NCBI RefSeq assembly: GCF_964204645.1
Contig: NC_134025.1
Coordinates: 21,303,101-21,367,100, forward strand
From: Tubulanus polymorphus
Lineage: Eukaryota; Animalia; Nemertea
DNA length: 64,000 nt
Direction: 5' to 3'
Numbering within the stretch: the first letter of the stretch is position 1; every line of letters begins with the position of its first letter. Made by a program: the position numbers and the translations under genes. Positions 12,201 to 59,857 of this stretch are shown in pieces. The notes beneath the pieces are model-generated. The model did no database searches. It was given only the letters and a program-made list of their open reading frames with translations, and had not been told where the DNA came from.

Positions 12201-15200
12201 ATGGCCCAAATTAGAAGGGATTAACTAGTGATGGTGTGAATTCAGCTTATAAGAATATGAATCCTAGATTATTTTGTCATGAACTGGATACATTTCAAGT
12301 AAATTTTGCAGAAGGTTTTGTCTGGGCTGTATAGTTATTATGGTCCATCATCAATTTGATTTTCGGCACTTTTCATTATCATCTCACAGACGTTGAATGA
12401 GACCTTTTCGTGTTTTGTATCGTTTAGGGGGAGAAGCCGATTCCCGAAGAGCGATTGGCGCGAGTTGTAGAATTAATCGAACCGTGGTTTATATTTTCCT
12501 TGCTCTGGTCGGTTGGGGCCACTTGCGATAACGACAGCCAGCACAAGTTCGACCAATGGTTACGCGAAAAGACCAAAGAATTCGGTGTAAGTTTGCAAAT
12601 AATCTGAAAGTCATCCTACATGAAATCATGTAGTTTGAGTGATTTCCTCAAAAACCCTATAAGTATGTGTTCAAGGGACGATGCTCTGGCTACAGCCACG
12701 TAGGCCTAGCTGTTCTTGTTAAAACATTAAGTATGCACCCACTAGAGCCACATGGTGCTCTAGCTCAGTACCATATACTTCTGCTCTACCATACAGTAGA
12801 ACTCACTTAATTCGGATGACTTGGGACTGGCCAGATTTCTCCAAATTAAATGAGATCCAAATTATGAATAAATAGTTAACATGGTTCCAGGTTAAATGTA
12901 CCAAATATTTCATCCGAATTGAATGAAAATCCGGATTGGAAAATCCAAATTAAGCGAGTTCTACTCGACTAGCTGTATCCTTCAAAGATTCAGCTAAAGA
13001 TTTTGAGAAAGGTGGATTTGGCCGACCGTGACACAGTACACCGTGGCTATAGTGAAACTTGAAAATCTCATGGTATCCAACTAGGGAATTTTGTTGTTAA
13101 ATGAAAAAATGATTTTTCTAGATAAGCCTAGTTTTCCCCGAGGAAGGATCGGTGTACGATTACATGCTAGATGATGGAGGTATCAGTCAACCGGGAAGTG
13201 ATGATGATGAGGAGGATGAAAACAAGGAGGAAAAACCTGTAAGTATTTGAGATCGAATCATCATTGTCATTTCTACCTGATATTGAAAACATTAGGTTTT
13301 TCATTCATGGTGTTGCTTGTTTTTTTTAGGTTTGTTGGGTTAATTGGATGGCAAATCTGCCTAAATTTGTCATTCCGCCTGAAACTAGATATTCTGATAT
13401 CATCGTTCCAACTATGGATACGGTCAGAATGACCAAGCTGATTCAAATGTTGTTGTCGAACAATAAAACTGTAAGTACCCTTTTGAACTTGCATTTTTTA
13501 TGCTATTGAAATGCCCTTTCGACAGGAAATATGCCCAATTTCAGGACGTTTTCCAGATCATTCGACAAAATTATGCCATTTTACCTATAGAAAGTGTCCC
13601 TTTCAGATTTTTTGTCCCCATGAATATTTGCATGTTCTTACCATGCGTACACAAAGCTCCCGCTCGGAATCAATTATATCCAGCGAGGAACTGGTGAACT
13701 TCACGATTTAGGGGAATAAAGGTTGCAAAAATTATGATTCTCTGTTTACAGGTTTTATCTATCGGACCTACTGGTACCGGTAAAACATTAGCGATATCCG
13801 ACATGCTGACGAAGGTTATGGCTAAGGAATACATTCCGGAGTTCATTTCGTTTTCGGCGAAGACAAGCGCCAACCAAACTCAGGATTTGATAGATGGTAA
13901 ACTTGACAAAAGGTAATTCGTACATACGTAAAAATAGAGAATATTACTCAGTCTAGGAAACCAATCCTGAAATTAAGATTATAAGATATCAACATCAACA
14001 CTGTTCTTTTTGGTATTTTACCAGACGTAAGGGTGTTTTCGGTCCTCCGCTTGGCAAGTATTTCATATTTTTTGTCGATGACTTGAACATGCCGGCGTTA
14101 GAAATTTACGGAGCGCAACCTCCGATTGAGTTGATACGTCAGTGGATGGACTTCAAGGGATGGTATGATCGTAAAATGATAGGTATGTACGAGTAGATAC
14201 AGTAGAGGTATTGTTAAATCCATACAGTAACTGGCAGCGCAAAGGATGTACAAATTTCACCTATTAGAGTCAAACTAACCTAACACTGTAGAACTAATTT
14301 TTTCGGAAAATGAAATATTCTCAGATCTGAGAAAAAATATTCATACCAAATCAGGGGCAGTGCTAGGAAAATTGGAAGGCTGGGGTCCAGGAGAATAAAA
14401 ATGCATTTCTTGGATAAAGCAGCCAAGTCAAAGGCCTCTATTGGGGTTTTCGCGTGGTTCTGCCCTCGGTTTTAGATATTTGTGAAGAAATACATCCGGA
14501 AGGTTGCAATTTCCGTGAGGATGAGCGCCAAAGACTGCCATTTGATTGTACATATTGGTCCCTGATTTGATAGTTTAAATTCAATGTTTTGTTCCATATC
14601 AAAAAATTAATTGAACTGCCGGAGCAAGTTTTAATAAGCTAATTACCCAATTAATTGCTCTGATTAATTTGTCTATTGCCGAGCTCTGAGTTGAGAATCA
14701 TAGCTAATTGGGTAGTCATCAATTGAGGTAATTAGTGACAAGTTGTCAGATGAAGAGATACCCCTGGCCAAACAGACACTGTGTCACTTGTCAAACTAAT
14801 AGCTATAAAATCTAGGCACGATTTCCAACCAGTATCAAATTGATTCACAGCAACTGAGAACAAACAACATGGATTACGAAACTGCCGTTGAAAGCTTCTT
14901 CGAAATCGAAAAACGCTTTCGAGCTGCGTGCTCGAAAATCATCGTCATCGACGAGAAACTATCGCGCCTCGACATTCAACTGAACAGAGCCGAGAACGAC
15001 GTTCACTGTCCGCGTTCAAACCTCATCAATCGCAAAATACAGATCTCGACGCTCGAAGGAGTACGGTTCGTCTATTATGAATACGCGCGCAGAAAAGCAG
15101 CCGAAATGAACAAACTTCGAGAGATTTGTTTTATCGCCGAGCAACGACAACAACAGCAGATGTCTCTGGATGAAGATTATTGATTATTTCAGCAGCAGCA

Positions 15201-18200
15201 GTCGTCACTGGATGCAGATTATTGATCATTTCAACAGAAGGTCCTTTTCAGGACCCCCTAAAACTACCAGTTAGACCCAGTCTACACTTACTCTGCTTAA
15301 ACCAATATTTGTGTCAAATTTATTCACCAGACATCCTTTCTGAAGGAATATGCTTGTATTGAACTATTGTAGAAAACCTCAATGAACTCTTTAATACCGA
15401 CAAATAATCTTTTGAACTAATTGATTTTAAGCCCCCTTGGTGGAAGGCCATTCGGGCTTATACCGCACCCCTGGGTCTTAGTGGTGGTCTGGCGTGCATC
15501 CGTCCATGCGTGAGGTATCTTGTGAACACTACAGACCACAATTTTTGACCCATCCGAATTCGGATGTATTGTGTATGACCAAAAACATCTCGGATCAGTT
15601 CAATTTCGATATTTGTGGTAATCAGATCCAAGATTGCTGACTGGTGTTAATCTTTGATTCTGAAAATATACATTTTGGATGACCTATCATATGACCAGAC
15701 TAGGTCATGATATCATCCAAGATGGCCGATTGTGACTTCACTTAGCACCTGACCAAGCAGGCTTAGATACATTCACATCTAGTTGTGAATTAGCTGGGTG
15801 AAAAAAAATACGTAGACTGAAAAATACGTATATCAAAGCTGGGATTGTTGCACATTAGTTGTGATATTCAGAGAGTGGACGGTTAACATCTTTCAAGAGA
15901 TAACTCATTACAGATATCTCATCGATATTTCTTGAAATTTGTAGGTGAATTCCGTCATCTGGTTGATGTGAATTTCATTTGCGCCATGGGACCACCGGGT
16001 GGTGGTAGGAACCCAGTAACATCTCGATTGACGCGACATTTCAACTATCTGGCATTCACCGAAATGGAAGATCACAGCAAGAAAAGAATCTTTGGAACAA
16101 TTCTTGACTGGTGGATAGGTAGGTAACTGGTCCAAAAATGGCCTTACAATACAAGCCTGGAAGAATTTGTTCGATTGAATAGCGAAAAGAGCTATAACCT
16201 ACCCTTCTCAAATCTAAATCTAGTTCACAAATTTTCAACCAATTTAAACATTATTTACAGTTGATATGTAGCTACGTAAAAAATGATACATCGATTATTG
16301 TGTAATGTGTTTGTTTTTTTAACGACCAGTTTCAAAGCGCTCCTATCAAGTGGCTGAAGGTGAAAAATCACTAATTTGCATGAATGATTTCTGTGATTTA
16401 CTTAGTACTTTTTACTCAATCACTTTCATGCATGCAGAAGTTGTTGCTTAACCATTATGTCACAGATCGTCATTTTATAACCAAAAAAAGCAACCTTATC
16501 TACTATAGCAATTTCAATTGTAAGATGGCCTTATTATCATCAGATAATCAATAAGTAGCATTCTAAATGTCACTTGTGTAGTTCAGGTATCCCTGAAAAT
16601 GGTACAGTGTTCCCAACGTTCAAATGCACCCAACACCTGTATTATTACAGTAATTTATCCCCAGCCTATATCTTTGAGTATGACTGGAGAAGTGGCATCC
16701 AAGCTACATACCCAGTACAGTACAGTGCAGTACACCAGTAGTTGCTTTTCACCAGATGCCCAATTACTCCTCAGTAGGGCATCAAGGATACTACATTGCT
16801 GTACCCCCATTATCTGACATCCCAGGTTCAAATTCTCTGACCAAACATAAATCATTATTTGCCATAATCGAATTATACCACATATTCATCCTTATGTTCA
16901 TGTTTAAATTTTCACGCTCTTTTTCCCGAGATGCATTTGAAACACATGTATTAGATTGCTAATTGAAAAAATTCTTCAATTTCTGATTTTCAGAAACTGC
17001 AAAAAATATCAAGGAATACAGCAGCCAGCTTGTGGAAACGTGTGCAACTGTATACAACTCCATTACAACTCAACTACTGCCCACTCCAGCGAAGAGCCAT
17101 TACACTTTCAACTTGAGAGATCTGTCAAAGATCTTCCAGGGAATCTTGATGGCTGATCCTTCAAAAATGGAGGTAAGACATCCACTAATTTTGAGGCCAA
17201 TTGCTCAAAAGCTAATTGAATTCTTGATGAGTGGTTTGAAATTCTAGAAGCTAATCAGCAGTCCGCTGACTTAGGATTTGCAGAACCCTGATTTTCAGAT
17301 TGAATAGTGCCCGGAAATTAATGGCTGCCCCTGATTGAGCTGTCATTCATGGTTATCGTAACATTGATTGAATATTGAACCTGAATGTGTGTCCATCTTA
17401 TGTCCCTGGGCCTGACCCACAACTGATACTTTGGGACTGTGGAGACTATGCTCTTGAATGAGATCGGACCCTATGGTAGAAAATATACGAAGTTTGTTTC
17501 TACATGTGTACTTAAACTATTTCCTTCTTGTATCAGAGTTTTCGCATTCATCCAACTTGGCAACTCTTAATGCTGTAAGGGAGTGAAACAAGTCTTAGAT
17601 ATTGAAATAGGAAATCAGTATGTAGAAGATCGAATTAGCAGAATTTCTTGGCCAACCCTTGGATTAATACAACTTTTCTTTATTGAACAACCGCTTCGCT
17701 GAGCCTAAAATTCACACGATTTGAATCTCAAGTTTTTACTGAGGAACCACACCTTAGTACCCATGTTTATACATGTACATTGTAGTCTATCATGCTACTT
17801 GTTTATGTACCTCAAGGCACTAAATTTTCCACTCTTTTCAGACTTTGAATGATCTGCTGAGACTCTGGTACCACGAAAGTTGTCGAGTGTTCCAGGATCG
17901 TCTGGTCAACGAGGAGGATAGACAGTGGTTTCACGAGCTGTTGAAAGACCGAATGAAACAAGACTTCCAAGTCGAATACGAGAATGTCGCGACACTGGAA
18001 CCGGTGTTGTACGGAGACTTCATGCAAGTCAGTGTGGATAACAAAGTCTATATGGAAATCACGGATCACACTCAGGTATTTGTATGAAAATGTGTGAAAT
18101 TCATGCGGTGATATAATTCTGCAGCCCGGACCTACCCTTAAAAGCCTAGCGCATATAGAAAGAAATAAATGAATTGGAAACGCCACATATTGACACTACA

Positions 18201-21200
18201 TTTTCAAAAATTGTCAAGACTTCACACTAGAATAATGTCTTCTGAAGACATGGGTGGTTCCAGGCTGCAGATTGCGCCGATGAATCGTTATCATAGACTC
18301 GTTTTTGCATGAAAATAACATTAACTACACAGTGAAACTGAAATGCCTAAAATTTATGTAATAGATTTCAAATATTTCTTTCAGAAATTCATAGGCTTGA
18401 TGCATATGATTTACTTTATTTCATTTTAGATGGTGAAAGTGATCGAAGATTATTTGGATGACTATAACCAAGTGAACACGGCTCAGATGAGATTAGTGTT
18501 GTTTATGGACGCGGTGAAACATGTTTGTCGCATCAGTCGAATTATACGTCAACCTCTCGGCAACGCGTTACTGTTAGGTATGGGTGGAAGCGGTCGACAA
18601 AGCTTGACGAAATTGGCTGCTTACATGTGAGTATAATGGTCTACGATGGTCGATCAGAATAATTTCATCACCAAGTTGAATGTGCCATCCCCCTTGCATG
18701 CATTGTAATACTGCCCCATGATGTGAAGAAACGAGGGGTGGATCCGAGAGGGATTTTCCATATTTTGTGATATGATGCCCTTCAAAATTTCAAAACTTGT
18801 TTCTTTGGTCATATTACCACCACCTCCACCACCACCACTAGATAGGTTCAGATGCACTCTGAATGCTATGAACTGTGCCGTTTAAAAATAATGCTTGTGT
18901 GAAGGGACCTAGTTCAGTGTTTGTGTTCATGTCACTTCTAGTGTTCCGAGATGACTCGGCCAAATATTGTCCTGGATTTGGTCCTAGCTTTGGATTTGCC
19001 CCTGCATCCTTGCCCTTGAGTGTTAAGAGTATTACTCATCCAGTTATAAGAACTGATTGACATCGGGATATGACATTAATCAGTCAAGAATTGTGTTTTA
19101 TTTACTTATTCCAAATAGAAGTGTCCACATTTGAATAAGGCAATGTTTTTCTGTAATCCAAAGGATGTTTTTGATAACAGTATGTTGTTTTGTTATAGGG
19201 CCGAGTATGATTTGTTCCAAGTTGAACTGGCTAAGAATTATGGAATTCCTGAATGGCGGGATGATTTGAAGACAGTTATGCTGCGTGCGGGCATGGAGAA
19301 TAAGCCGATGGTATTCCTATTCAGTGATACACAGGTACATCGTTTTAGAGAACTGTCAAGCTTTTATAAGCCCACTTGGGACTTTAGTCCCAGCAGGCTA
19401 TTGCGTTCACTTTTCGTCCGTCCGTAGACGGAATCCAGTTATTTTGGGAAGTTCTGAAGACGCTTCAATGTAATGTCTTGATATTTGGGTTACACATTTA
19501 TCTACCCTAGACACATCTTCAGCCCAAAAACTGGCCCTGTCAGAATCAAGATGGCCGACTGGCAGCGATTGTTGTTCGCCAAAATCAGCACTTTTTACAC
19601 TTTTTTTAACTTTTTGAGGGAAATTTTGAAGACGCTTTGATCAATTACCTTGATCTTTCATTTATATTTGATACCCCAAAGGACCCATCAGCTTAAGAAA
19701 AATTGGGTCGATTGAAGATGGCCGTCCTATGACCTTTTTAGTGCCCAAAAATGTCAATTTTGGCTGGAATTCTGGGTCCTGTAGCTTCCTACTGGTTTGC
19801 CATTTCTCATTGCAATTTGTGATGGGTATTCTTTGGAAAGGGATGTTTTATACCTGAGACAGGTATTCTTGATCAGCCAATTATGACGCAATTGGCGGCC
19901 ATCTTGGTGTCATCAGTACTCATTCATAGGTGGGAAAAGTTTTTCCACATTATATTGATACCTAAGCATATTGTGTTACTACAATCAATTGGAAAGTTGT
20001 AGCCCATGACGTGCTCTATGATTTTGGTGAGTTTCAAGGTCATTGGTTATTGTATATGGCCACCAGGGGCGTTGAATAATACAATAACTTAGTATTTCTA
20101 TATTATATTTGAACCTATGCATATTTTGTAACCACAATCAATTGCAAAGTTGTAGCTCATGACATCGTCTATGATTGTGGTAAGTTTTAAGGACATAAGT
20201 TATTCTGTAAGGTCACCAGGGGGCGTTGAATAATAGAATAACTTAGTATTTCCCTATTAGATTGGTACCTAGGCATATTTTGTTACCATGATCAATTGCA
20301 AAGTTGTAGTTCATGACATGTTCCATGATTGTGGTGAGTTTCAAGGTCATTGGGTTTAGCATATGGTCACCAGGGGACGTTGAATGGTAACGCAACTTAG
20401 TATTTCCGTATTAGATTGGTAACGAGGCATACTTTGTTATCACAATCAATTACAAGGTCATTGGTGGGTTTCAAGGTCATTGGTTTTTGTATATGGTCAC
20501 CAGGGGGCATTGAATATCGAAATTGTTAGATTGTTCAGCATTGAAAAACCACTTCCCAAGTGGGCATGGTGTCCCTGGACCCCTAGTTCGGAAATGGACT
20601 GACTGCTTCTAATAGAGTTAAGTTTGCTTGATAAAGATTTTTTCGCTGTTCTCTATTTGTTGTATACAAAAAGGCAATAATAAGCTAAAAGTATGGGTAT
20701 TGTCCCTGGATAGATTCCATTAAAAACATGTAAAAAAACAGACCCTTGTTCATATCCTTGTTCATACACCCACAATCATTCTATATTCCTTGAGTATATA
20801 CCGTAAGGTACATTAACATTGATTCACAGATTGATTCATGATATAGGCCTATGACAGAATACTCTGAAATAAGATGAGAATGATTTCTGAATTCATATGT
20901 GTGGTTGGTTTTCTGTATTCAGATTAAAAGTGAAAGTTTCCTGGAGGATTTGAACAATATTTTGAATTCCGGCGATGTACCAAACATCTACGCACTGGAC
21001 GAACTCGATCAACTTTACACGGCTATGAAGCCGATCGTTCAAGATATGGGCCTTCAACCTACGAAAACGAATCTGTTTTCGGCTTATACGAAACGAGTTC
21101 GTAGTAATCTGCATACAGTCATTGCAATGAGGTACATTTCTTCTCTCCACTAAATCTATCCTACTGCAGAAATATTTTGTTGCGCCGTGGGGACATATCC

Positions 21201-35900: not shown

Positions 35901-38900
35901 TCAATCGGTTTTCTCTGGGAACAAGCCTTCTTCTAATTTAATGTGAATTCATTACTTTTTAGATACAACCGTCTTCTGGAAACGATCCATAATTCGCTTC
36001 ACGATCTGTTGAAAGCCTTGAAAGGTTTAGTCGTTATGTCGGAAGCTTTGGAGAACATGGCCAACAGTTTGTACAACAATATGGTACCCGATATGTGGGC
36101 AGGAAAAGCATACCCATCGTTGAAACCTCTGGCATCTTGGGTAACCGACTTGGAACACAGGATTCAATTCATCAAAGACTGGATCGACAATGGAATACCA
36201 GCTGTAGGCATTTTTCCATTCTCATTTCTGCATGAACCTAATGCACACAGCAAGACATAAGCTGTGACCGCAAGAGCGCTTTTGACCCGAGCCCACTGTT
36301 CACACGGGTGCCAAATGCAATCCAGGCAAAATTTGACTTGGGCCAGATCGGAGTCAATTAATCATGCGCTAAATCACCCCTGTCTGATCACAGCTATAAA
36401 TACAAAACAGAAAAGTTTTTCTGGCTTGTTTTACTGTGTGTTGCTTCAAAACACAGAAGAAACATAATTTGTGTTTTGTGTTTCGGAGCGTTACACAAGG
36501 TCACAAAACATGTTAGGAAAGTGTTTCAGGCTAATGTCTAGCTGTGTGAGGCCTTCGTAAATAGGACATTAATCAAATTTTGGTACTCGACACCAAGAGA
36601 GCAAAAAGCATTTTTCACTTTGAAAATCGTCCATATTGTCCCTTGAGTGAATTTAGATTTGCTGTAGCTTAAAAATGAACTCTATTTATCGCTTGATATT
36701 TCAGGTTTTCTGGATCTCCGGCTTCTTCTTCCCGCAAGCATTTTTGACTGGAACTTTGCAGAATTTCGCTCGTAAAGAAGTTATCTCGATTGACACGATA
36801 TCTTTCGGTTTTGAGGTAGATAATCATCAAACAATCTCTGAAGGAATTAACCGCAATCTGTATTCATTGACATCTTAAGATGTACATGTATACTTCATAC
36901 CATAATATATTCATTCAGATTCTCTTAAGATACCATTGTCATATGGCTTGTATTTTGATTCATTGAAAAGATGCCAATTTCACATGTTCTACAGACCAAT
37001 ATGTTTAGCTTTGCCATTTCTTTCTTAGTGAAATTTATCCTGAATTTTACGAGTGTAGTTCAATTACTTTTTCTGATATCAGAGAAAATTTGTACCATAT
37101 ATTTATCTAGCAACGCGGGAATGCTTCCTTTTTGTCAAAGTCTTGCGCCGACATTTCCACATTTCATTCCATATTCCATTTAATGAATTTTCAGTTACGA
37201 AATGCTGAAAGTTTCTAGTACTTTTGTTCATCTTTGCATTTCGTTATGTTCTATAGGTTGTGAAGACTCCGGCTTCAGAACTGAAGCGGCCAGAGAACGG
37301 TTGCTACATCAACGGTCTGTTCCTGGAAGGCTCGCGTTGGGACTACAACGCCCATCAGTTAACTGAATCCAAACCGAAAGATTTGTTCACCGAGATGCCC
37401 GTCATTTGGCTGATTCCCTACGAAAATCGAACCCAACCAGAAGAAGGAATCTATGAATGTCCTGTTTATAAAACCTTAACGAGAGCGGGTAAGTCATTCA
37501 AACAAAATGAAGGGTTGATTTGTACGTACGTACGTACATACATACATACATATATATTCAGTGGAACCTCGTTACAATGAACTTCAATGGACCAAAAAAT
37601 ATGTTCGTTATAACCGATAGTTCATTATATCGGGTATGAAATTTATCAAATCGTCTTACAAAATTCTTTATTTGTTTTAACTGATGAATTGTTGTAATCC
37701 AAGTTTGTTTTAACAAGGTTCGGCTGTATACATATCATCATTGTCCAAAAGTAAGCTTACTTAACATTGGGGGGTGATTGTATATGGCTATAAGTATCGG
37801 AAAGCCCCTCGCCAGTATCAGATTGCGTATTAGCATTTTATTTACTGGCGTATTATCATCAAAAGTCAAAATTTATGAATATTGTCAACGAATATTGTGT
37901 GTAGCTGTGACATTGGAATGAATAAGCTGATTAATTCGGCACAGACACAGGATGATTGAATAATGATTATATCTCAATGAAATTCGACGTACGGTGCTTA
38001 CGTCATTTATTTCATTTGCGCAACTCCTTTAACGCATGCTCCTTTCAAGCTATTCATATTTACTATAAGCGTGCCATCTTGAGTGGGCTTATTGTGCGTA
38101 AACACTTGAAGGGCCGGCTATTGTTTATTAACACTCAAAGCGGTAACATCTTGCAAAGGAACAGTATCTCTTTTTACTATGTCTACCATCTTCACAACCG
38201 ACCGTGGGGTGCATAGACCAAATTTCGATGACCCTCAGTTGCTATATGAGTTGTGATGGCTGCTGGGCTAATGGTCGTTTATTAGCAGAGAAAGCGGCAG
38301 TCAGTCCGCTGTCCAGCCATTCAAAGGGATCAATAGTTTAATCCACAGGTGTATGGACAGCTGTGTGAATAACCCATGATCACCCGGCATCATGCCTATT
38401 GTCAAATATTATATTTGCTTCACTAATTTATAACAGATGCATTTATTCCCTTCACATTTATTTTCACATAGCAAGCCATGGGGGAGGGGGCAATCATTCA
38501 CGAAAAATAAATAAACCCCATTAAGGTGGGTCTTGTTTCAGGAAGAACAGTCTCTTATTGCAAATGACATCTATATTAGAAATATAGGTTTTGATGCAGC
38601 TGTTGTTTGTCAAAGTTTACCGATTTGTTGAGTACAAATAAAGCACATCTGATTTCAACATTCATTTCAAACATTGTGTGAAAGTATATGTCATTTTATA
38701 TACATTCTAAAACTTGGGGGGCCCACTGTTCATAATTAATTAAGGAATTTCGACCTCGATTAAGGGACTGAATAAGGCTAGCTTGGTCTTATCTTAGGTC
38801 TTAGCAGTGGAACTAGCCTCAGGGCCCCCCAGTTTCACAAAAAGGATTAAGGCCTAAATCGATTTATGATAAACTGAATTAATGAAGAAATCAAATCGAT

Positions 38901-48300: not shown

Positions 48301-51300
48301 TAATCCTAAAACCTGGTCTTAAATTATTTCGATTGGCTATAGAATTAAGCTGGCCCGAGACTGGTCTTAAAGTAAGTTATGTATCATGACTGTGTTATTT
48401 GCCTCTGGTCTTAAACTTATCTTTTCTCTCCTCAGAGATGGACATAGAATACTTGACCGAGACGCCTCAGACGAAGGCGTGCGACTTGTCGAAGAAGACG
48501 TTGGATCAGAAGTCGACGTCGTCGTCCTCGTCGCAGGTGGTTATGATCAAGCAGGAACCGCGTACGGAGATCATCACGACGTCGGCGACGACGGCTACGA
48601 CGATACTGAAACAACCGACGATCGTCCTGACGACGACGACGCAGCCGATATCGACGCAACACCGCATCGGCGTTCAACAACCGGTGACGAAACACGAACG
48701 AATGATCGTGCCGAAATACAGCATCAAGTTGGAGCCGCACGATCTTATCGACTCGATGAGTGATACATCTAGTAAGACACGTTAGATATCTGGATATCGA
48801 GGGGTTCTTCTGGGAGCCTCGAAATTCCCTCGGTTAGGGATTCGAACCTGATGGCATTGCTACACTCAGCCACGGCACAAAACCCTGCCACAGTAGACAG
48901 GGTGCGCAGGTTTACTGCAGGAAAACTTGCGGCACCAATCAGATTGCTCATTGTATAATCGCTGAGAGGCTATAAATGGGAAACCCGGGGCTGAAATAAA
49001 ACGGGATATCTGATTGGCTAAAAATGATTTCATCTAGCTGCGCGCTCGGTTTATCTAGTATGGCAGGGTTTTGTACCATGGCAATCTCGATGCCATCAGG
49101 TTCGAATCCCTGCCTGGGGAGGATGTTCGAAACATTTTGTAAAGAAAAAAAGAAGATTTTTTTTCAACATAGGTGCAATCTATTGTAATTCTGTAAGGGG
49201 GTGAAAAGTGTACTGCAAGTCCACCTTTGTTGTTAACTTGCCCAAGATGTATTTGGTAAGACCCTTCAATCTTGCCCCTCTAGTTCTTTGGCTAGAAAAA
49301 GAAAAAGAAGAAAATTCTGCTAGCCTTGATATACGCCTGCGAGCCTTAATCAAATAAAGTCGGAACAAACTGACGAATTCAGTTGCCCTGTTTGTGCTGA
49401 ATATGGGTGTGGTAGTATTGAATATGCCTCGAAGGGCTTCGATCAATCAGAACCACAATTTCAAAGTTGCTTCGAGCTTTATGCTGCAAGGTTATATGAT
49501 AGTTACTACTGATGTGGGATCAATATAAACTGTCGGCCAAACTGACACATGTGTTTATTGTATTGGATATATAAGCACGTTGAACAACGAACAATAGCGC
49601 ATCAACTGTATTTGATATCTCCGAATCGATGTTTTCTCACAGTAGTTAAAGGTGGGATGGGTCCAGGGATAAGTTGAGACTAAATCGAAAAAAAAAACGG
49701 TTCTTTCTTCCGATAAGCCCCGGGTATGGTATATACGACTAGCGTTTATAAGTTTACGAATCCATAAACAGCTGAACTCGCTTAATTCAGATGATTAGGG
49801 ACTGCCCGGATTAAATGAAATCCGAATTATGAATTCATAGTTTTGATTAAAACATGGTTCTAGGTTAAATGGACCAAATATCCAATCCGAAATTAAATGA
49901 AAATCAGGATTAATTGGGTTCTATTCTCTCTGTGTATAAGTAATTCCTGCTGCCTCTAGTGCCGCTGAAAAGTATTCTGAATTCCTTCACTCATCTCATT
50001 ACATGTACCTAAATAAATGTTTTTCTATTTGTCATTTTGAAGACGACCATGTCAGTTTGCCGCCCACGCCGCCCAGCAGTAATAACAGCAGCGACAGCGA
50101 AGGTGGTCAGAGTCCGCTGAGATCGGCGCCGTCGAGCCCGATACGGCACACGTTAATACCAAACAGGCTTCCTCAGACGACCGTTACCTGTAGAACCTAC
50201 ACATCTCAACCTCTCTTCTCGAGTCCCGTTCGAGTGAGTTCGTTTTCTAGCCTTGTCGGGACTTCCATTTATACGGGAGCATTAGGCACAAATTTTAATG
50301 ATGATAAACAGGTCATATCTCATGACGTGTTTCATAATTGCTGCGGGTTTCAAGGTGATTTGGTAATTTGTGTTCGTTCACTTAGAATTTTTAAATTGCC
50401 AGATTGTCAAGCATTTCACCGAGTGGGCATGGTCTCCCTGGAGCTTCATTTCCTACTATGTTTTCAATCATAGCTGCTGGGTTTAACGTGTGGAGTACCT
50501 GAATCTCTTTTGGGTCTATCTAAGGATGTATACCTCTGAGTCCAATAACTCCGCTGTTTTCCCATTTTTGGAACTAAGCCTATTAATCTAAAACCCAAGC
50601 GGAAAAGCTAGATCGTGAATCGGTGTTCCTTAATTCGACTAACATTATTAAACAGTATCCTAACAATGTCATCCCACATGAAATGAAAATTGTCATCAAT
50701 TTCAACTGACTAGGTCGACGCTTAATGATGGGTTAAATTATTCTGTCCGAACTAGACAAATTTGATAATTTTTCCGACGCGGCTTATTAGCTTGTTAATA
50801 GGTGTGGGGGCTAATAAAACGGTTTCGGTCTGAACATCGGCATAAAGCCAACAACGCCAGAGTGTTTTGAAAAATGTTCAGTCTTTTAAGCACATAATCA
50901 TTATCAGAGCTATTTACACTAGGTGTTACCGGTTTCTGTCTGGACAAATATTTAGCTTTCACCGTATTTGTCGATGTATGAAACGAATGAACCTGACGTT
51001 TACTGATTTTTAGGTCAATTTAAGGGTGGACCTCGAAGTTCGTAAGAGTTGTAGAATTTCAAGCTTTGGCAATGACTGAATGAATTTGGCAAATTCTACC
51101 TGTTGAAATGTATGAAAGATATAGTCGGGTCATAAAATATTTGCACTTTTTTGTGGGGAACTGATTCAAATTATGTCAATTGACACACAATTGACGCTTC
51201 CATACATTATGTTGGACTCCATTCTAGTAGTAAAATTCCTGTACAAGTTTTAGAAACCCACAATAAAATACCCCCCTATGAAATCATTTCATTATAAAAT

Positions 51301-54111
51301 ATGGAGTGACAGTAAAGTGACAGTCAATTCAATTGCTATGAATCACTCATTTTTCTTAAAGAAAAAGTAATTTTTAATTTTGTGGGTTTTTTTTATAAGG
51401 AACATTTGAATACTGTGAGAGTAAGTACATGTTTCTTGTCCTTCCTTGTCCAAAGGTATTCCAGCGCTTTCCTCAATTTTATAGGCTCTAATGCCTATTA
51501 TGAGAAAATGTCTTTTCTCGTGCTTAACGACGTTTTCGGGTCGTAATGTGCTTTTCCTGTCCATTTGAGCGCTTTTGCGCTACGACAATTTCAATTTTCC
51601 GATACGGGGAAAATTTGATGAGAAAACGTCTTGTCGGCATGTTCTCTACATGTGTTTAGCACTAAATCCAGGGTGTGTTCCTTTTTTCTCTTGTTGAAGC
51701 CATGGACCTTGCCATGCACTGTGCCTATGACTATAGCATATAATTTTTAGGAAATTCACGCATCATAATGAACCTGAACCGCGAGCAGAGTTCAGTTTAT
51801 TTCTGATATTTGGACTTCGCATTAAAACTAAATCATCCTGTCACTATTTTATGAACTACTACACTGAGTAATTATCTTATCAAAAAAAAAACCTTGTAAA
51901 TGATAAATCATAGTGTGATGATTACATAAATGCACTTTGGTACTGTTTATATGGTCATTGAGTGTGTTATGATGGACTCTGGAAACGTTCAACTTACGAT
52001 TGTGTCAATTAATTCTAGGTCACTCACAACGGCGTGTTGGTACTAACCGAAGAAGAAAAGCGCACGCTTATCACCGAAGGCTACCCGATACCCCAGAAAC
52101 TGCCTCTTACAAAACAAGAAGAGAAAAATCTAAAGAAAATACGAAGAAAAATAAAGAATAAAGTGAGTTTTATAAATTATTGGCGCTATTGTTCCAATCA
52201 TTCAATTCTGGAATGCCGAACCTCGTAAGTGCCTTGACCTACAGTACTGTAACTTCTTGACTCTGTCAAGACGCTTCTCATCACCTATCATCTTCTGGAG
52301 AACACAGGCTGATAAATGGCTTCAGCATATTTTACTTTACTTAAGCTCAAATTTACATTCCCCACCACACTCTAGCGCAATTATTTAGAGTTTGCGCAAG
52401 AAAGACATGTAATTGTACCCTCTTTGCTCCCAACTACCGGCACAATTTGGTACCTCGCTAGCTATGCGTGCGGTTTAGTACCAGGACCTTCTTCGCGACA
52501 TGATTGATACCCAGTTACATACATACATGAGCCACTTGGTCAATTTTCATAATATCCTTGAGCTATAATGTTAGTGGTTACAGGTAAATAAATCAATGTA
52601 TATCACTTGCAGATATCTGCTCAAGAAAGTAGACGAAAGAAGAAAGAATACTTAGAAACTCTAGAGAAAAAGTAAGGCGCTGATATATATCGGCTTCGAG
52701 TGATTAGAAAATATTCCGAATTTGATCTCAATCGAAAAGTGAATGCTCATATAAACTGTAATCTATCAAATTTTAGGGTAGAAGCATTTACGCATGAAAA
52801 TGGGGAACTAAAACGAAAGGTGGATTCACTTGAAGGAAACAACAGGTAAATAGGAATTTTCGATCGTCGATTCGATGATTTAACCCTTTCAGAGGTGACT
52901 AATTAATATCCTATAGTGCTGGAGAAAATGTGAAAATTTCGGATAATTCCACCCTAGTGTGTTGAATAACGGGAATAGCACTATGATGCGTCTACACCGC
53001 GGCGAAGTGTATCGTTAGTTACTATTATTTCACTATGTTTGACGGGTGCTGTCATCTTTGTATAGAGATAAAAACTAAAAACTAATTACATCAATACACC
53101 GCAGTGCGGTGTACTAGCAAAATCCATTACCGATTTATACACCGCACTGCCGTGTAGATGCACTGAAAGGGTTAATAGCATTTAGTTGGAATATCGAGTT
53201 GTCAGCTTGAGTTGTCTGTTATTTGGTTGGAAATTCTGACTGATTGCTCGATGAACTTGCTTAGTGGCTCAGGCAATTCTGTTAATTCAATATGGTACCA
53301 ACGCTGTTGGAATTACCGGTTTTTATATTGCAGGTGCTCTTGTGACCTGTGTTGCCTTATTGTTGTTAGTGGGGCAGACCAAAACTGATGAAAATACTGT
53401 TCACTTGTCTCTGATTATGAAACGGGGAATCATCCCTCTTATCTGTTTGATTTATAGATTGATTGATTTTGATTCGATTTAAAATTGTGTGTCCCTTACA
53501 AACCCATCAATCACACCTGTTGGCGACAAAACAGGGGGTTTAATTTTGAAATCAGAAATCGAAGTACAGATATAGTCAGATGATTGGCATTTGTAGATCT
53601 TATGTCTATTTTGTAAAAAAAAAGATATCAATTTATATGTTTTTCCTCTATGCGTAGATCTTTACTGTCACAACTGCAGAAGTTACAATCCTTGGTAGGG
53701 AAAGTAAGTCGACCATCTGCTGTTACGTCAACACAAACCGGAACCTGTCTCATGGTAAGCATACATCGAAGTCGTTCACTTCGTTCTTCGTTTTCGACTC
53801 TAGTTTCCCTTGCACTAGTTTTCGTTCTCGACCTAGCTCCACTGAGTCCTGCGTTTTTGACTCTAATGAACGAAAACTGATTTCGAATCGTATAGCCTTT
53901 CTTAGTGAGCAATCCGTGGAGCCGGGTCGGGATTCGATTCGTATCCATGAAAGATTCATTCATCGTAAGTTTTCGGATGAATTCTTTGTCCTCTACATAA
54001 AAAACTATATCAGCTAAGTCTACATTCAGGTTTTTGATTTTGAGTTGATTGCGGGCTCTCTATGCAGGGACTGAAGTTCGATAGATTTGAGATTGACTGA
54101 TTGGTTGATTA

Positions 54112-54157
<46 letters not shown>

Positions 54158-54707
54158 CTTAAGTTCATTTGTTAACCCCTAGGGCCAGTTGCACAGTTGT
54201 GACTTTAGTCCAAAAGTGTTCTTAATTCTTAAGACTGGTCTTAAGTTGTTAGATTGGCTATAGAACTAAGTTGGTCTTAGACTGGTCTCAAGTCTAAAGC
54301 CTGACTATGCAACCGGCCCCAGGGGCTGGTTTCATTGTCTTAGATGGTCTTACACTGGTTGCACATCTAAGCCATGACTGTGCAACTGGCCGCAGATGAC
54401 TGGGGTTAGGTTAGTCCGAATCCAATGATATTATTTTGAGCTTATCGATATAGGTAACTCTCGCCAAATCCACTGATCAGCAAGTACTCATTTGAAACTT
54501 GAATTTCTGACTCCGTAATTTAGACATTGCTGATAATACCGATATATGGTAATCCTTTATAAAGTATTGAAATTTTATTCAATACACCATTCAAGTGTCT
54601 CGCTTCATCCAAAAATCATTCTATCTATATGATTATTATTCAGCGCCGATTGTTTAAACAGCTGGTGCTCCAAATACCCCATTCGCTAATAACGTATCTG
54701 AAATATA

Positions 54708-58000: not shown

Positions 58001-59857
58001 ATAAAATGCGCTTGGAACGCTACCATATTGCTGTCGAAATAATTAGATCAACGTCTTTTGTATAGTTCAGCCTAAATTAAACCTATTTGCGGTACTGGAA
58101 TGCGACTTATAAGCTTTGAAGAAAATATAAATCTAATCAAATCTGTTGAAAAATGGGTCTGAAAATCTTAATATAATGGGTGAATCGGTGGTAAATCCTT
58201 CAGCAATTAAGATTATTTCCATGGAGCCAGGGTCAACAAGTTGTTCAAATATTGTTAGCTGATTCAAATTTCATCTTGATAGTACTCGGTGAAGCCTTGT
58301 TATAACGATTTATTGATTGTTACAAATTCAATTGAATGATTTCATACCAGATATATGATGAACTATCAGCCGTAACAAACAGAAGTTGGTTTCCTGAAGT
58401 TCCTTGCAACGAGGTTCTATTTTATGAAACATTAATTCTAACTTCGATTTGATTTCGAAATCTTCGTCGACAAATGATTTCATTCGGAACGTAAAAAACG
58501 ATTTTGACGTCAATGAATTGATTCTCCCGATCCTTAACTATAACTTTTACTCCGCGAGTTTTGCTATCTGCGGTATTTGATTTCGTTTTAGTCGGATGGG
58601 ATTGGGTATTGATTAATACTAATCATTTTGATACCGCGTCGAGGCGCATGAGGGAGTCGCCGCGTTATCGCCAGCCATTTGTGGGTTAACAGATGGTTTC
58701 ATTCGCGTTAACTGTCGCAGCTGATGCAATCTATGTTGCGCGTGTGTTCGAATTTCACGAATTAATTTCATATATCGATCTCATTGTTTGCCGATAATTA
58801 CGCTTTCGTATGAAAAAATGAAAATCAAGTTCTAGCTGTATTCGAATATCTAGACGAAAATAGTATATTCAATTCTATATCAGAATGTTATTGTGTTTTT
58901 GGTAAAACTCACTTAACCAATTAGCACTCAGGAATTTCACAATGTAGTGTCCATTACTCCCCAGAAAATTCAAGGGAAAATCACAAGTTTATCACCATAC
59001 AGAATAGTTTATTTCTAGTCAGTTCATGTACAATAAGTTCATGTCATTTTGTAGTAAATAGTCAAGGCTTTCATATGATATAATATTCGATAAGGTGGGC
59101 CACCAAAATCGTGACCTTTTGGCCCCCGATATTCGCCCAGACTTACGGTACTTGGATGTGAGTGCTCTGATCTGTCGTGTTCATACTCCTAATACTCGAG
59201 AATTGAAAATAGGAAGATGTTGATTTCTGTACGGTATTTCGAGGACTTGGGTCTCTAGTTTATCATAAGCTTTTGGCCGAGTCAGATGGAACTAGACTGA
59301 TGTTTTATGAGCCATCTCGCTTGAAAACATTTTTAAGAATCCCGAGTCAGACATAGGTAATATGGAACAAATTGCACGGACCGGTACCATTGGCTGCTTT
59401 ATTTTTGCTTAAATGATTTTCCCTTAATCTTAACGAAATCGGGAGCAAATATCCTGATATCCAAATAGATCAGATTTTAGTATTCTTAGTTTCACCAGTC
59501 TATATCATCTTTCGATTACTTGCAGAAAGGTCGCGTGTCCTCTTGTCGATGATGGAAGATTTAGAAGATCATAGCTTGTACGAGCCGTACGGACCGAACA
59601 TGCCGTTCATGAACAAAGATGACGCCTGCGACAATAACGACGAGGAGTACAAGTTTCACGATCCCGGTTTACCGAAAGCCGCGCCGTTACCCGAATCGGA
59701 GATGCCGCCGTCGTCGTCGGGCGACGAAGGCGGGCGTGTCGTCGTCGTCAAAGCGGCGACGAAGGCCAACGACACTCGCAAAGAGGTGAAACCGATTCCC
59801 GACATCGCGGCTGAGTTTTCCAGCAACATAGCGGTCGACGTAACATCTACGGCTTGA
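45235..59857 (+). CDS. CREB3L1: CREB3L1/CREB3L2-like (OASIS/BBF2H7/CrebA) ER-membrane bZIP transcription factor, 10 exons, 565 aa
   Basis: N-terminal DRKLSEL, FEDPVL and IKSEHSYSL; [15 protein letters not shown]; ATB domain [31 protein letters not shown]; b[25 protein letters not shown]; [19 protein letters not shown]; S1P site RVLL. Phases consistent (1698 nt). Likely co-orthologous to vertebrate CREB3L1 and CREB3L2. Confidence 0.9.
47415..47665. mobile_element. CAG...CTG-terminated (hAT-like) non-autonomous element
   Basis: CAGTGGTGGATCC...GGGTCAACCACTG; TSD not evident. Confidence 0.45.
47772..47955 (+). CDS. CREB3L1: CREB3L exon 2
   Basis: [11 protein letters not shown]...IKSEHSYSL. Confidence 0.88.
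48436..48771 (+). CDS. CREB3L1: CREB3L exon 3 (Thr-rich, IKQE/IKLE SUMO-like motifs)
   Basis: ctcag|...|gtaaga; phase 1-1. Confidence 0.85.
48836..49111. repeat. Foldback inverted repeat (about 280 bp) in CREB3L intron 3
   Basis: Nested perfect stems 48836-48857/49090-49111 (22 bp), 48877-48890/49061-49074 (14 bp), 48935-48944/49008-49017 (10 bp). Confidence 0.85.
50043..50233 (+). CDS. CREB3L1: CREB3L exon 4
   Basis: [21 protein letters not shown]. Confidence 0.88.
52019..52162 (+). CDS. CREB3L1: CREB3L exon 5 (ATB and basic region)
   Basis: [17 protein letters not shown]...KIRRKIKNK. Confidence 0.95.
52613..52671 (+). CDS. CREB3L1: CREB3L exon 6
   Basis: [19 protein letters not shown]. 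Confidence 0.95.
52777..52845 (+). CDS. CREB3L1: CREB3L exon 7 (leucine zipper)
   Basis: [22 protein letters not shown]. Confidence 0.93.
52884..53171 (-). mobile_element. piggyBac-type MITE, copy 2 (inverted relative to 26341-26627)
   Basis: TTAA TSDs, CCCTTTCAG TIRs, internal TACACCGCA.TGCGGTGTA palindromes. Confidence 0.85.
53658..53754 (+). CDS. CREB3L1: CREB3L exon 8
   Basis: [13 protein letters not shown]...TQTGTCLM. Confidence 0.93.
54096..54157. repeat. (GATT)n microsatellite
   Basis: Directly visible. Confidence 0.9.
54182..54392. mobile_element. Two adjacent Harbinger-type MITEs
   Basis: GGGCCAGTTGCACAG...TGCAACCGGCCC|CAG|GGGCTGG...TGCAACTGGCCG|CAG; degenerate relatives near 6190-6286 and 48285-48415. 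Confidence 0.55.
54711..54782. repeat. (TA)36 microsatellite
   Basis: Directly visible. Confidence 0.97.
54939..55020. repeat. (AT)41 microsatellite
   Basis: Directly visible. Confidence 0.97.
56653..56833 (+). CDS. CREB3L1: CREB3L exon 9 (transmembrane and luminal start)
   Basis: [15 protein letters not shown]... Confidence 0.9.
57000..57256 (+). mobile_element. Harbinger-type MITE containing a nested copy of itself (57091-57217)
   Basis: Inner element flanked by CTG TSDs (57088-57090, 57218-57220); same family as 29251-29367. Confidence 0.85.
59526..59857 (+). CDS. CREB3L1: CREB3L terminal exon (S1P site, luminal domain)
   Basis: (K)RSRVLLSMM...NDT sequon...VDVTSTA*. Confidence 0.87.

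Follow-up and report, generated by a model that had tools for sequence, protein, structure and literature searches.

An intronless gene with a histone-type layout on the sense strand of a DNAH1 intron in the ribbon worm Tubulanus polymorphus

Histone messages are described as the sole cellular mRNAs that end in a stem-loop instead of a poly(A) tail (PMC5100578). The reference cassette used for comparison here comprises the stem-loop (Rfam RF00032), SLBP, the histone downstream element, the U7 small nuclear ribonucleoprotein and CPSF73. Published accounts give the downstream element as rich in purines and variable, and assign to SLBP a stabilizing effect on U7 binding (PMC5435866); maternal histone messages are described as being processed by SLBP without U7 (PMC11997800). 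Some histone genes also yield polyadenylated messages that run beyond the stem-loop, and SLBP is cell-cycle regulated in mammals (PMC5100578). Here we describe a small gene nested in an intron of the dynein gene DNAH1, within a 64,000-nucleotide stretch of the Tubulanus polymorphus genome (contig NC_134025.1, positions 21,303,101 to 21,367,100) that we call the window and number from its first letter. Like metazoan replication-dependent histone genes, the window gene is intronless, with a TATA promoter, short untranslated regions and a hairpin of 6 bp with a 4-nt loop that stands 56 nt after the stop codon. Unlike them, it does not encode a histone (it has no Pfam match, no histone among its solved-structure sequence matches, and a predicted helical hairpin fold), lacks the AAAAG of the downstream element, and stands as a single gene in a dynein intron, outside a histone cluster. 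In layout the window gene is thus akin to replication-dependent histone genes, without being one of them.

Three further systems bear comparison. The SLBP-dependent, U7-free route of Drosophila and Xenopus maternal histone mRNAs would fit the combination of a perfect hairpin and a poor downstream element in the window; it differs in that only histone messages are described on it and these are polyadenylated on a truncated stem-loop (PMC11997800). Named lophotrochozoan proteins such as LOC141898434 (Tubulanus), LOC135502177 (Lineus), LOC123553738 (Mercenaria) and LSAT2_008627 (Lamellibrachia) have the same 80-residue domain (F-x-x-A-C, EG-x-R, YEYA) and acidic tail, while the window protein and its nearest relative lack their R-Y and R-S-F-R-Y basic-aromatic residues around the turn. 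Like lophotrochin and trochin, spiralian ciliary band genes (PMC7441323), the family is lineage-restricted and uncharacterized; a ciliary link was a tempting idea, the host being a ciliary dynein, and the DUF4476-like domain described for lophotrochin (PMC7441323) was not found by Pfam in the window protein or in 132 family members. A search of the literature, mostly open-access, found no report of the family or of non-histone genes with this cassette. The words 'non-histone', 'mollus' and 'annelid' do not occur in the main text of 10.64898/2026.10.14.759114, supplements aside, and the passages found in a 2026 review mention no non-histone genes with the cassette; those of an SLBP CLIP preprint contributed nothing further.

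The open reading frame (ORF) is complete and lies on the same strand as its host, as the initial annotation of this DNA had proposed: it runs from 14869 to 15183, encodes 104 residues and contains no internal stop. The flanking DNAH1 exons are contiguous through a phase-1 intron (Table 1); the dynein frame therefore does without the ORF, which also agrees with that annotation. Exon identity was assigned by ranking against solved dyneins, with DNAH1 on top for both flanking exons, and exons of the dynein C-terminal domain at 35937-37577 place the end of DNAH1 near 37.6 kb. The coding-like composition noted earlier is likewise borne out, with a GC content of 0.46, third-position GC of 0.52 and a CpG observed/expected ratio of 1.98 in the ORF against GC of 0.38-0.39 and CpG ratios of 0.49-0.55 in both intron flanks. 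The window holds 16 ATG-initiated ORFs of at least 100 residues, several of them dynein exons or chance frames, so length by itself is no evidence. What raises this ORF above chance is its homology, its synonymous bias relative to a second copy, and the promoter and 3' signals that it has in common with relatives. We conclude that it is a genuine intron-free nested gene on the DNAH1 sense strand. A different use of the same frame, as an alternative terminal DNAH1 exon yielding a truncated dynein with a helical tail, is extremely unlikely. Spliced to the phase-1 donor, the AG at 14814-14815 would keep the frame, which is open from 14809, but this AG lies across the TATA region and its pyrimidine fraction is 0.42, compared with 0.58-0.74 for three real acceptors. 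None of the other four AGs is in frame, and the relatives are stand-alone genes with the same promoter.

Related loci, 22 in number and all of metagenome origin, were retrieved from a tight subfamily (alignment A3) whose 21 sequences have ~26-35% identity with the window protein. The reading frame is uninterrupted in all 22 of these related loci, one of which is cut by its contig end. A strict search for histone-type hairpins on both strands of the window returned one match, at 15240-15255 just downstream of the ORF, and none in 3.84 Mb of simulated DNA. The stem-loop is present in both the minimum-free-energy and the centroid fold, and its 16 nt are identical to the stem-loop of a Drosophila histone reporter (PMC4105754). 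It also has the features set out in 10.64898/2026.10.14.759114, namely a 6-bp stem, a 4-nt loop, a G-C second pair and a U at the third loop position, and its distance from the stop falls inside the range of 25-60 nt given there. Eight of the 22 related loci carry a hairpin 13-18 nt after the stop; in the window the end of the ORF is tandemly duplicated, and the hairpin lies 14 nt from the duplicated TGA. In an alignment of 12 hairpins every stem cell is paired (72 of 72), with the window sequence contributing changes on both sides at two of the six pairs; this is a count over related rows and not a probability. Proteins called through the TGA stop give a further view of the hairpin. Of 326 read-through translations 11 bear its peptide shadow, against a mean of 0.02 and a maximum of 1 for shuffled tails; the 11 include 8 of the 27 with long, W-containing tails, and the closest relative of the window protein carries the shadow in its read-through protein, P0152. 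The read-through tail of another member, P0098, has two hairpin shadows in tandem, seven residues apart. Elsewhere in the window, a looser hairpin at 48803 was set aside as intronic, non-canonical and of a kind expected by chance.

The promoter was as the initial annotation had read it: a TATA box at 14804, an Inr-like (initiator-like) CCAGT with its A at 14831, 27 nt from the start of the TATA box, an A/C-rich leader and an aacATGG context. Promoter tests used 15 of the 22 related loci, in which the TATA box was chosen by eye; four loci were dropped as near-duplicates, two as truncated and one because its TATA box was unclear. TATA-like words stand 70-126 nt 5' of the ATG in 15 of the 21 related loci that have an ATG. 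A TGTCA direct repeat precedes the TATA box in the window, and three relatives (L014, L015, L020) have it at the same -22 position; the pattern matches once in 16.6 kb of other locus DNA and three times in the window. A looser form of the neighboring palindrome, TG[AG]CA-N1-3-TG[TG]CA, has a single match in the window, which is the palindrome itself. With a 5-mer model built from the 15 distant promoters, 14671-14800 ranks second in the window, first place going to a (GATT)n microsatellite. An intronless gene with a TATA and TGTCA-repeat promoter is a family layout present in the window copy. TGACAG is described as a Prep/Meis site, and TALE (three-amino-acid-loop-extension) factors as binding widely at the zebrafish blastula stage (PMC6023610); from the promoter motifs we infer that TALE-type homeodomain factors may act on the window promoter.

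Copies of the gene were compared in contigs of three public runs (X1, X2, X3) from two samples of one study; these contigs cover introns, and one sample is possibly the source of the window. The window copy is unchanged in the second sample, with 0 differing letters over 14641-15169 in the contigs shown. A second copy, ~90% identical, is present in both samples, and there are more distant copies besides. An allelic second copy was rejected: in X1 the contigs on either side pass through DNAH1 exons without a break, their depth stays the same and no second haplotype is seen, and each of the two samples contains both forms. The contigs thus identify the second copy as a paralogue. The similarity of the two copies extends from about the start site to at least 15320, at least 65 nt beyond the hairpin, and 14826-14861 is identical (as implied by contig ends, assuming 31-letter words). 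Similarity past the hairpin, together with a promoter built of family motifs, favors duplication at the DNA level over a retrocopy. Within codons 37-104 the complete list of differences holds 16 substitutions, 12 synonymous and 4 non-synonymous, giving an omega of ~0.09-0.14 (p 6e-6 to 2e-4, with an expected synonymous share of 0.21-0.30). The second copy has two indels within the ORF, each of 3 nt, and 1-nt indels after the stop. Its hairpin region from 15241 to 15278 is identical to the window, and the preceding 57 nt hold 8 differences and 3 indels (Fisher p 0.02 or 0.003, the region having been picked post hoc).

These copies bear on two other accounts of the locus. The first, which we regard as quite unlikely, takes the gene for a duplicate within an expanding family that is itself silent or decaying, with signals inherited from an active parent and still uneroded. 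Such a fate would suit an organism with several copies, a family with tandem arrays in relatives, and a gene that has lost conserved residues and the downstream element and gained a 2-residue insertion. It sits poorly with an ORF that is intact and identical in the second sample, with the excess of synonymous changes, and with promoter motifs and spacing that are intact; most of the residue losses are, moreover, common with the closest relative, which has its own hairpin shadow. The second, which is very unlikely, treats the ORF as cargo of a mobile element inserted in the intron. High-copy repeats do lie on either side of the gene and its copies are dispersed, one of them at a depth of ~150 in X2 and not listed in X1. 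However, the gene is not framed by long terminal repeats, whether inverted or direct, and the left and right repeats are unlike each other. The 22 related loci, tested for histone and family motifs, have no tagged second ORF except histone H3, five bivalves have near-identical proteins, and no fused form was found in a weak search. Terminal repeats, a target-site duplication and a transposase were looked for around the gene in the window and not found. The depth-150 copy, one of the more distant ones, covers window 14866-15090 in runs X2 and X3, and other copies have depths of 25-45; copy-number variation is possible, though depth is not copy number and the records are filtered.

The protein belongs to a family whose named members are all uncharacterized. 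Searching with the single sequence gave one relative, P0002 (58% identity), and a two-sequence profile of the window protein and P0002 reached 388 clusters at E<=0.001, clustered at 50% identity. A kinship with uncharacterized mollusc and other spiralian proteins, as suggested earlier, is supported by profile searches that match mollusc, annelid and nemertean proteins. The homology check proposed with it succeeded in finding relatives in these 388 clusters; the treatment of the ORF as a lone gene did not hold, the organism having several further copies. A profile built from 132 of these clusters, taken from the top 150 after removal of the longest, finds named members from Lamellibrachia, Ridgeia, Tubulanus, Lineus and five bivalves. 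These are confined to annelids, ribbon worms and bivalves; most records are nameless, hence the taxonomic range is not fixed. Pfam found no family in the window protein, none in 25 longer members, and 13 weak families in the 132 members, each in at most four of them and none at the level of a true match. Among 7,991 scored candidates one 374-residue match was the only candidate for a longer, fused form, in a search that was weak. The family combines a basic core (median net charge +6) with an acidic tail (median 36% D/E). No relative was found in IMG/VR for P0001, P0161 or alignment A3, and the sole phage match is weak (E 0.8), which gives no sign of a viral origin in that database. Two observations concern other members: P0216, P0221, P0232, P0248 and P0260 are near-identical proteins from five bivalve genera with an N-terminal basic R-S/R-V-T-R stretch, and cluster P0011 has 35 members, several per contig.

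The helical hairpin proposed by the initial annotation is also what AlphaFold2 predicts, with two helices at residues 3-43 and 49-103 and a predicted local distance difference test score of 96.9. Sequence searches of solved structures returned only coiled coils (E>=0.014), and Foldseek against PDB and viral structures gave no match at E<=0.001. The best VIA-align match is a designed protein (Z 11.9, root-mean-square deviation 1.9, 97 residues aligned), where generic helical bundles are expected at Z ~13; the CHMP4B hairpin (Z 11.5, deviation 1.1, 79 aligned, 6% identity) also falls below that level. The fold searches gave generic helical hairpins only, and the scores do not single out ESCRT-III, PspA or prefoldin. 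In the ESM Atlas, reached via homologues, leads stay below 0.9, and the best is a 51-member cluster that is mostly mollusc. Within the family the window protein keeps the conserved F17, A20, C21, A41, E63, G64, R66, Y72 and A73, and its score on the family core profile, of which it was itself a member, is 83.5 bits, the seventh lowest among 132. Judged from the alignment, it forms with P0002 a derived subfamily in which the basic-aromatic residues around the turn are lost.

We consider it fairly probable, from these signals in the DNA, that the window gene is transcribed alone from its TATA promoter in oocytes or dividing cells and that its message is ended at the hairpin through SLBP. A number of observations weigh against this. 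Every RNA-processing and protein-function step is read from DNA. The RF00032 match at 15235-15281 has an E of 0.0011 and, at 23.4 bits, does not reach the gathering score of 34, at which a scan of the window is empty; in the related loci that score is reached by one of eight family hairpins and none of three H3 hairpins. AAAAG lies at +12 to +14 in all eight family hairpins and in two of the three H3 hairpins, and nowhere in the window copy. The second copy has a G to A change at 15240 that breaks the first stem pair. No hairpin is present in 14 of the 22 related loci, including all three that are linked to H3 (L012, L014, L016), whose family members are of a hairpin-less, poly(A)-signal type; an AATAAA or ATTAAA lies within 350 nt in 13 of these 14 hairpin-less loci. 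The hairpin is therefore not obligatory in the family. A 10-mer promoter test does not discriminate, the window reaching 4 of 15 and 34 of 319 control tiles also reaching 4. The selection test covers the path between two copies, not current use of the window copy. For the 5' part of the second copy, 5 of 17 differences are listed, and the change at 14933 would create a stop unless a neighboring base also differs, so that the second copy is not proven intact. Finally, the window protein lacks the near-fixed R37 (92%), Y38 (83%), R52 (75%), Y53 (86%) and Q23 (88%). The first four are changed to Q, L, L and I, and R37, R52 and Y53 are jointly absent in just 3 of 132 rows. It groups with P0002 on a long branch (Shimodaira-Hasegawa-like approximate likelihood ratio test 100, in a quick tree of 78 chosen rows), and its sequence suggests that it may differ from the family in what it does.

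The initial annotation saw a potential polyadenylation conflict with the host gene, for which the sequence gives no support: the 761 nt between the ORF stop and the next DNAH1 exon contain no AATAAA or ATTAAA, and a histone-type stem-loop stands there instead. From the sequence of the intron, the conflict probably does not arise. Weak variants of the signal follow the ORF, AATGAA at 15381 and AATATA at 15665. AATAAA or ATTAAA within 350 nt also occurs in three of the eight hairpin-bearing loci, and AT-rich DNA yields such words by chance. An AAAA at +5 to +8 would pass the loose AAA rule of 10.64898/2026.10.14.759114 but sits at the cut site. The window hairpin may work with a diverged U7, may work without U7, or may be a relic. 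A relic hairpin in an expressed gene, whose message would be polyadenylated at one of the weak signals further on as in the hairpin-less relatives, is an unlikely alternative. Its case is made by the missing AAAAG element, the two weak signals themselves, the 14 relatives without a hairpin, the similarity of the second copy running on past the hairpin, and the polyadenylated histone messages that extend past a stem-loop (PMC5100578). Against a relic stand the perfect stem with both-side changes relative to the family form, a hairpin that is the same in the second copy, together with the next 23 nt, except for its first G, and the lack of AATAAA or ATTAAA in the 761 nt.

Termination at the hairpin through SLBP, the reading that we prefer, can be set out as a series of proposed steps. 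First, duplication at the DNA level would have brought the gene here, since its promoter and the stretch past the hairpin are present as well. Second, it would be transcribed from the TATA promoter, with TALE-type homeodomain factors as likely regulators and with oocytes, early embryos or further dividing cells as the likely setting. Third, SLBP would bind the hairpin, and the 3' end would form either via a U7 tolerant of a diverged element or by the U7-independent route of maternal histones. Fourth, DNAH1 pre-mRNA would cross the intron uncut, since the intron has neither a strong poly(A) signal nor a strong, standard U7 site, and this would let the gene persist there. Cell-cycle regulation of SLBP could in addition separate the nested gene and DNAH1 in time. 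Fifth, the basic hairpin with its acidic tail would most likely be a small chromatin- or replication-linked adaptor made with histones.

The last step is tied to the genomic neighborhood of the relatives. Three of the 22 related loci hold an H3 gene, equipped with a stem-loop of its own, ~1.1-1.4 kb upstream of the family member and in the same orientation (L012:1-390, L014:1-70, L016:566-976). The charge pattern, the histone-type end and this H3 linkage hint at a small chromatin or replication-linked adaptor, an assignment that is possible and, on balance, doubtful. A bolder proposal, which we rate as rather improbable, is that of a fifth core-histone partner in lophotrochozoans: a small helical family whose genes lie beside H3 and 5S in tandem arrays or carry the stem-loop and would thereby be made with histones, with a window copy that retains the SLBP hairpin, has lost the U7 site, follows the U7-independent maternal route and is hence tolerated in the DNAH1 sense strand, the dynein pre-mRNA staying uncut. 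Two observations from the related loci stand beside this. 5S ribosomal RNA genes adjoin family members in 2 of 20 scanned loci (L002:364-482; L003:1434-1552 and 1803-1886), and histone-5S linkage is described in mussels and brine shrimp (PMC13525598). The same sequence occurs at both contig ends in 8 of the 22 loci (L001, L004, L005, L006, L017, L019, L020, L021), as expected of collapsed tandem arrays or circles of 1.3-2.3 kb.

If true, a large non-histone family with the same hairpin, conserved through both-side changes of the stem, would be a second client for the SLBP pathway and would direct attention to an unstudied protein that molluscs, annelids and ribbon worms produce together with histones. 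Such genes would be under-represented in poly(A)-selected RNA data, a possible reason for their missing annotation. The window copy is a natural experiment, with a perfect hairpin and no standard U7 site on the sense strand of a host intron, and it offers a direct test of which portion of the cassette is required and of how the host pre-mRNA escapes. The new parts are the missing downstream element, the common promoter layout, the H3/5S linkage of relatives and the selection test. The features of the locus are collected in Table 1.

Table 1. Features of the nested gene and its host intron, in window coordinates.
Feature	Position	Strand	Observation
DNAH1 exon 5' of host intron	14025..14182	+	DNAH1 ranks first (human residues 2277-2328, E 3.5e-26)
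DNAH1 host intron, GT...AG, phase 1, 1,762 nt	14183..15944	+	the exons to either side are contiguous on DNAH1
High-copy dispersed repeat (approximate ends, outside gene)	14340..14540	.	summed contig depth 1015 vs ~30 in flanks; many loose ends
Promoter 13-mer GTCATCAATTGAG	14715..14727	+	exact in 3/15 related promoters; the window-promoter tile alone reaches 3 among 319 tiles
TGACA-N3-TGTCA palindrome, putative TALE-homeodomain-like sites	14736..14748	.	5/15 related promoters
TGTCA-N2-TGTCA direct repeat	14782..14793	+	starts 22 nt before TATA; pattern in 7/15 related promoters
TATA box, TATAAAA	14804..14810	+	sole TATAAA in intron; 36 TATAAA in window
Inr-like site and short A/C-rich leader	14826..14868	+	putative start site
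Intronless ORF, 104 residues, predicted antiparallel two-helix hairpin with short Q/acidic tail	14869..15183	+	translation
42-nt tandem duplication of ORF end	15148..15231	+	35/42 identical; second unit untranslated, with TGA at 15223-15225
Stem-loop GGTCCT-TTTC-AGGACC	15240..15255	+	56 nt 3' of stop, 14 nt 3' of duplicated TGA
Histone downstream element position	15267..15275	+	AAAAG absent in window copy; longest purine run AGA
Dispersed repeats (approximate ends, outside gene)	15425..15800	.	depth peaks, loose ends
DNAH1 exon 3' of host intron	15945..16118	+	best match DNAH1, human residues 2331-2386, E 1.4e-23 to 8.7e-23

Several minor observations complete the survey. A scan of IMG/VR for the histone hairpin pattern returned 11 stretches (L023-L033), with no histone or family ORF. 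These exact pattern matches are flanked by A and T runs, like bacterial or phage terminators, and they call for caution in motif-only hairpin searches. Elsewhere in the window, GC-rich frames at 48438-48785, 49940-50473 and 59417-59857 are exon-like and suggest a second spliced gene with low-complexity S/T/D-rich stretches and no Pfam match. A tandem repeat with a unit of ~153 nt occupies 19938-20516, and the (GATT)n microsatellite lies at 54080-54160.

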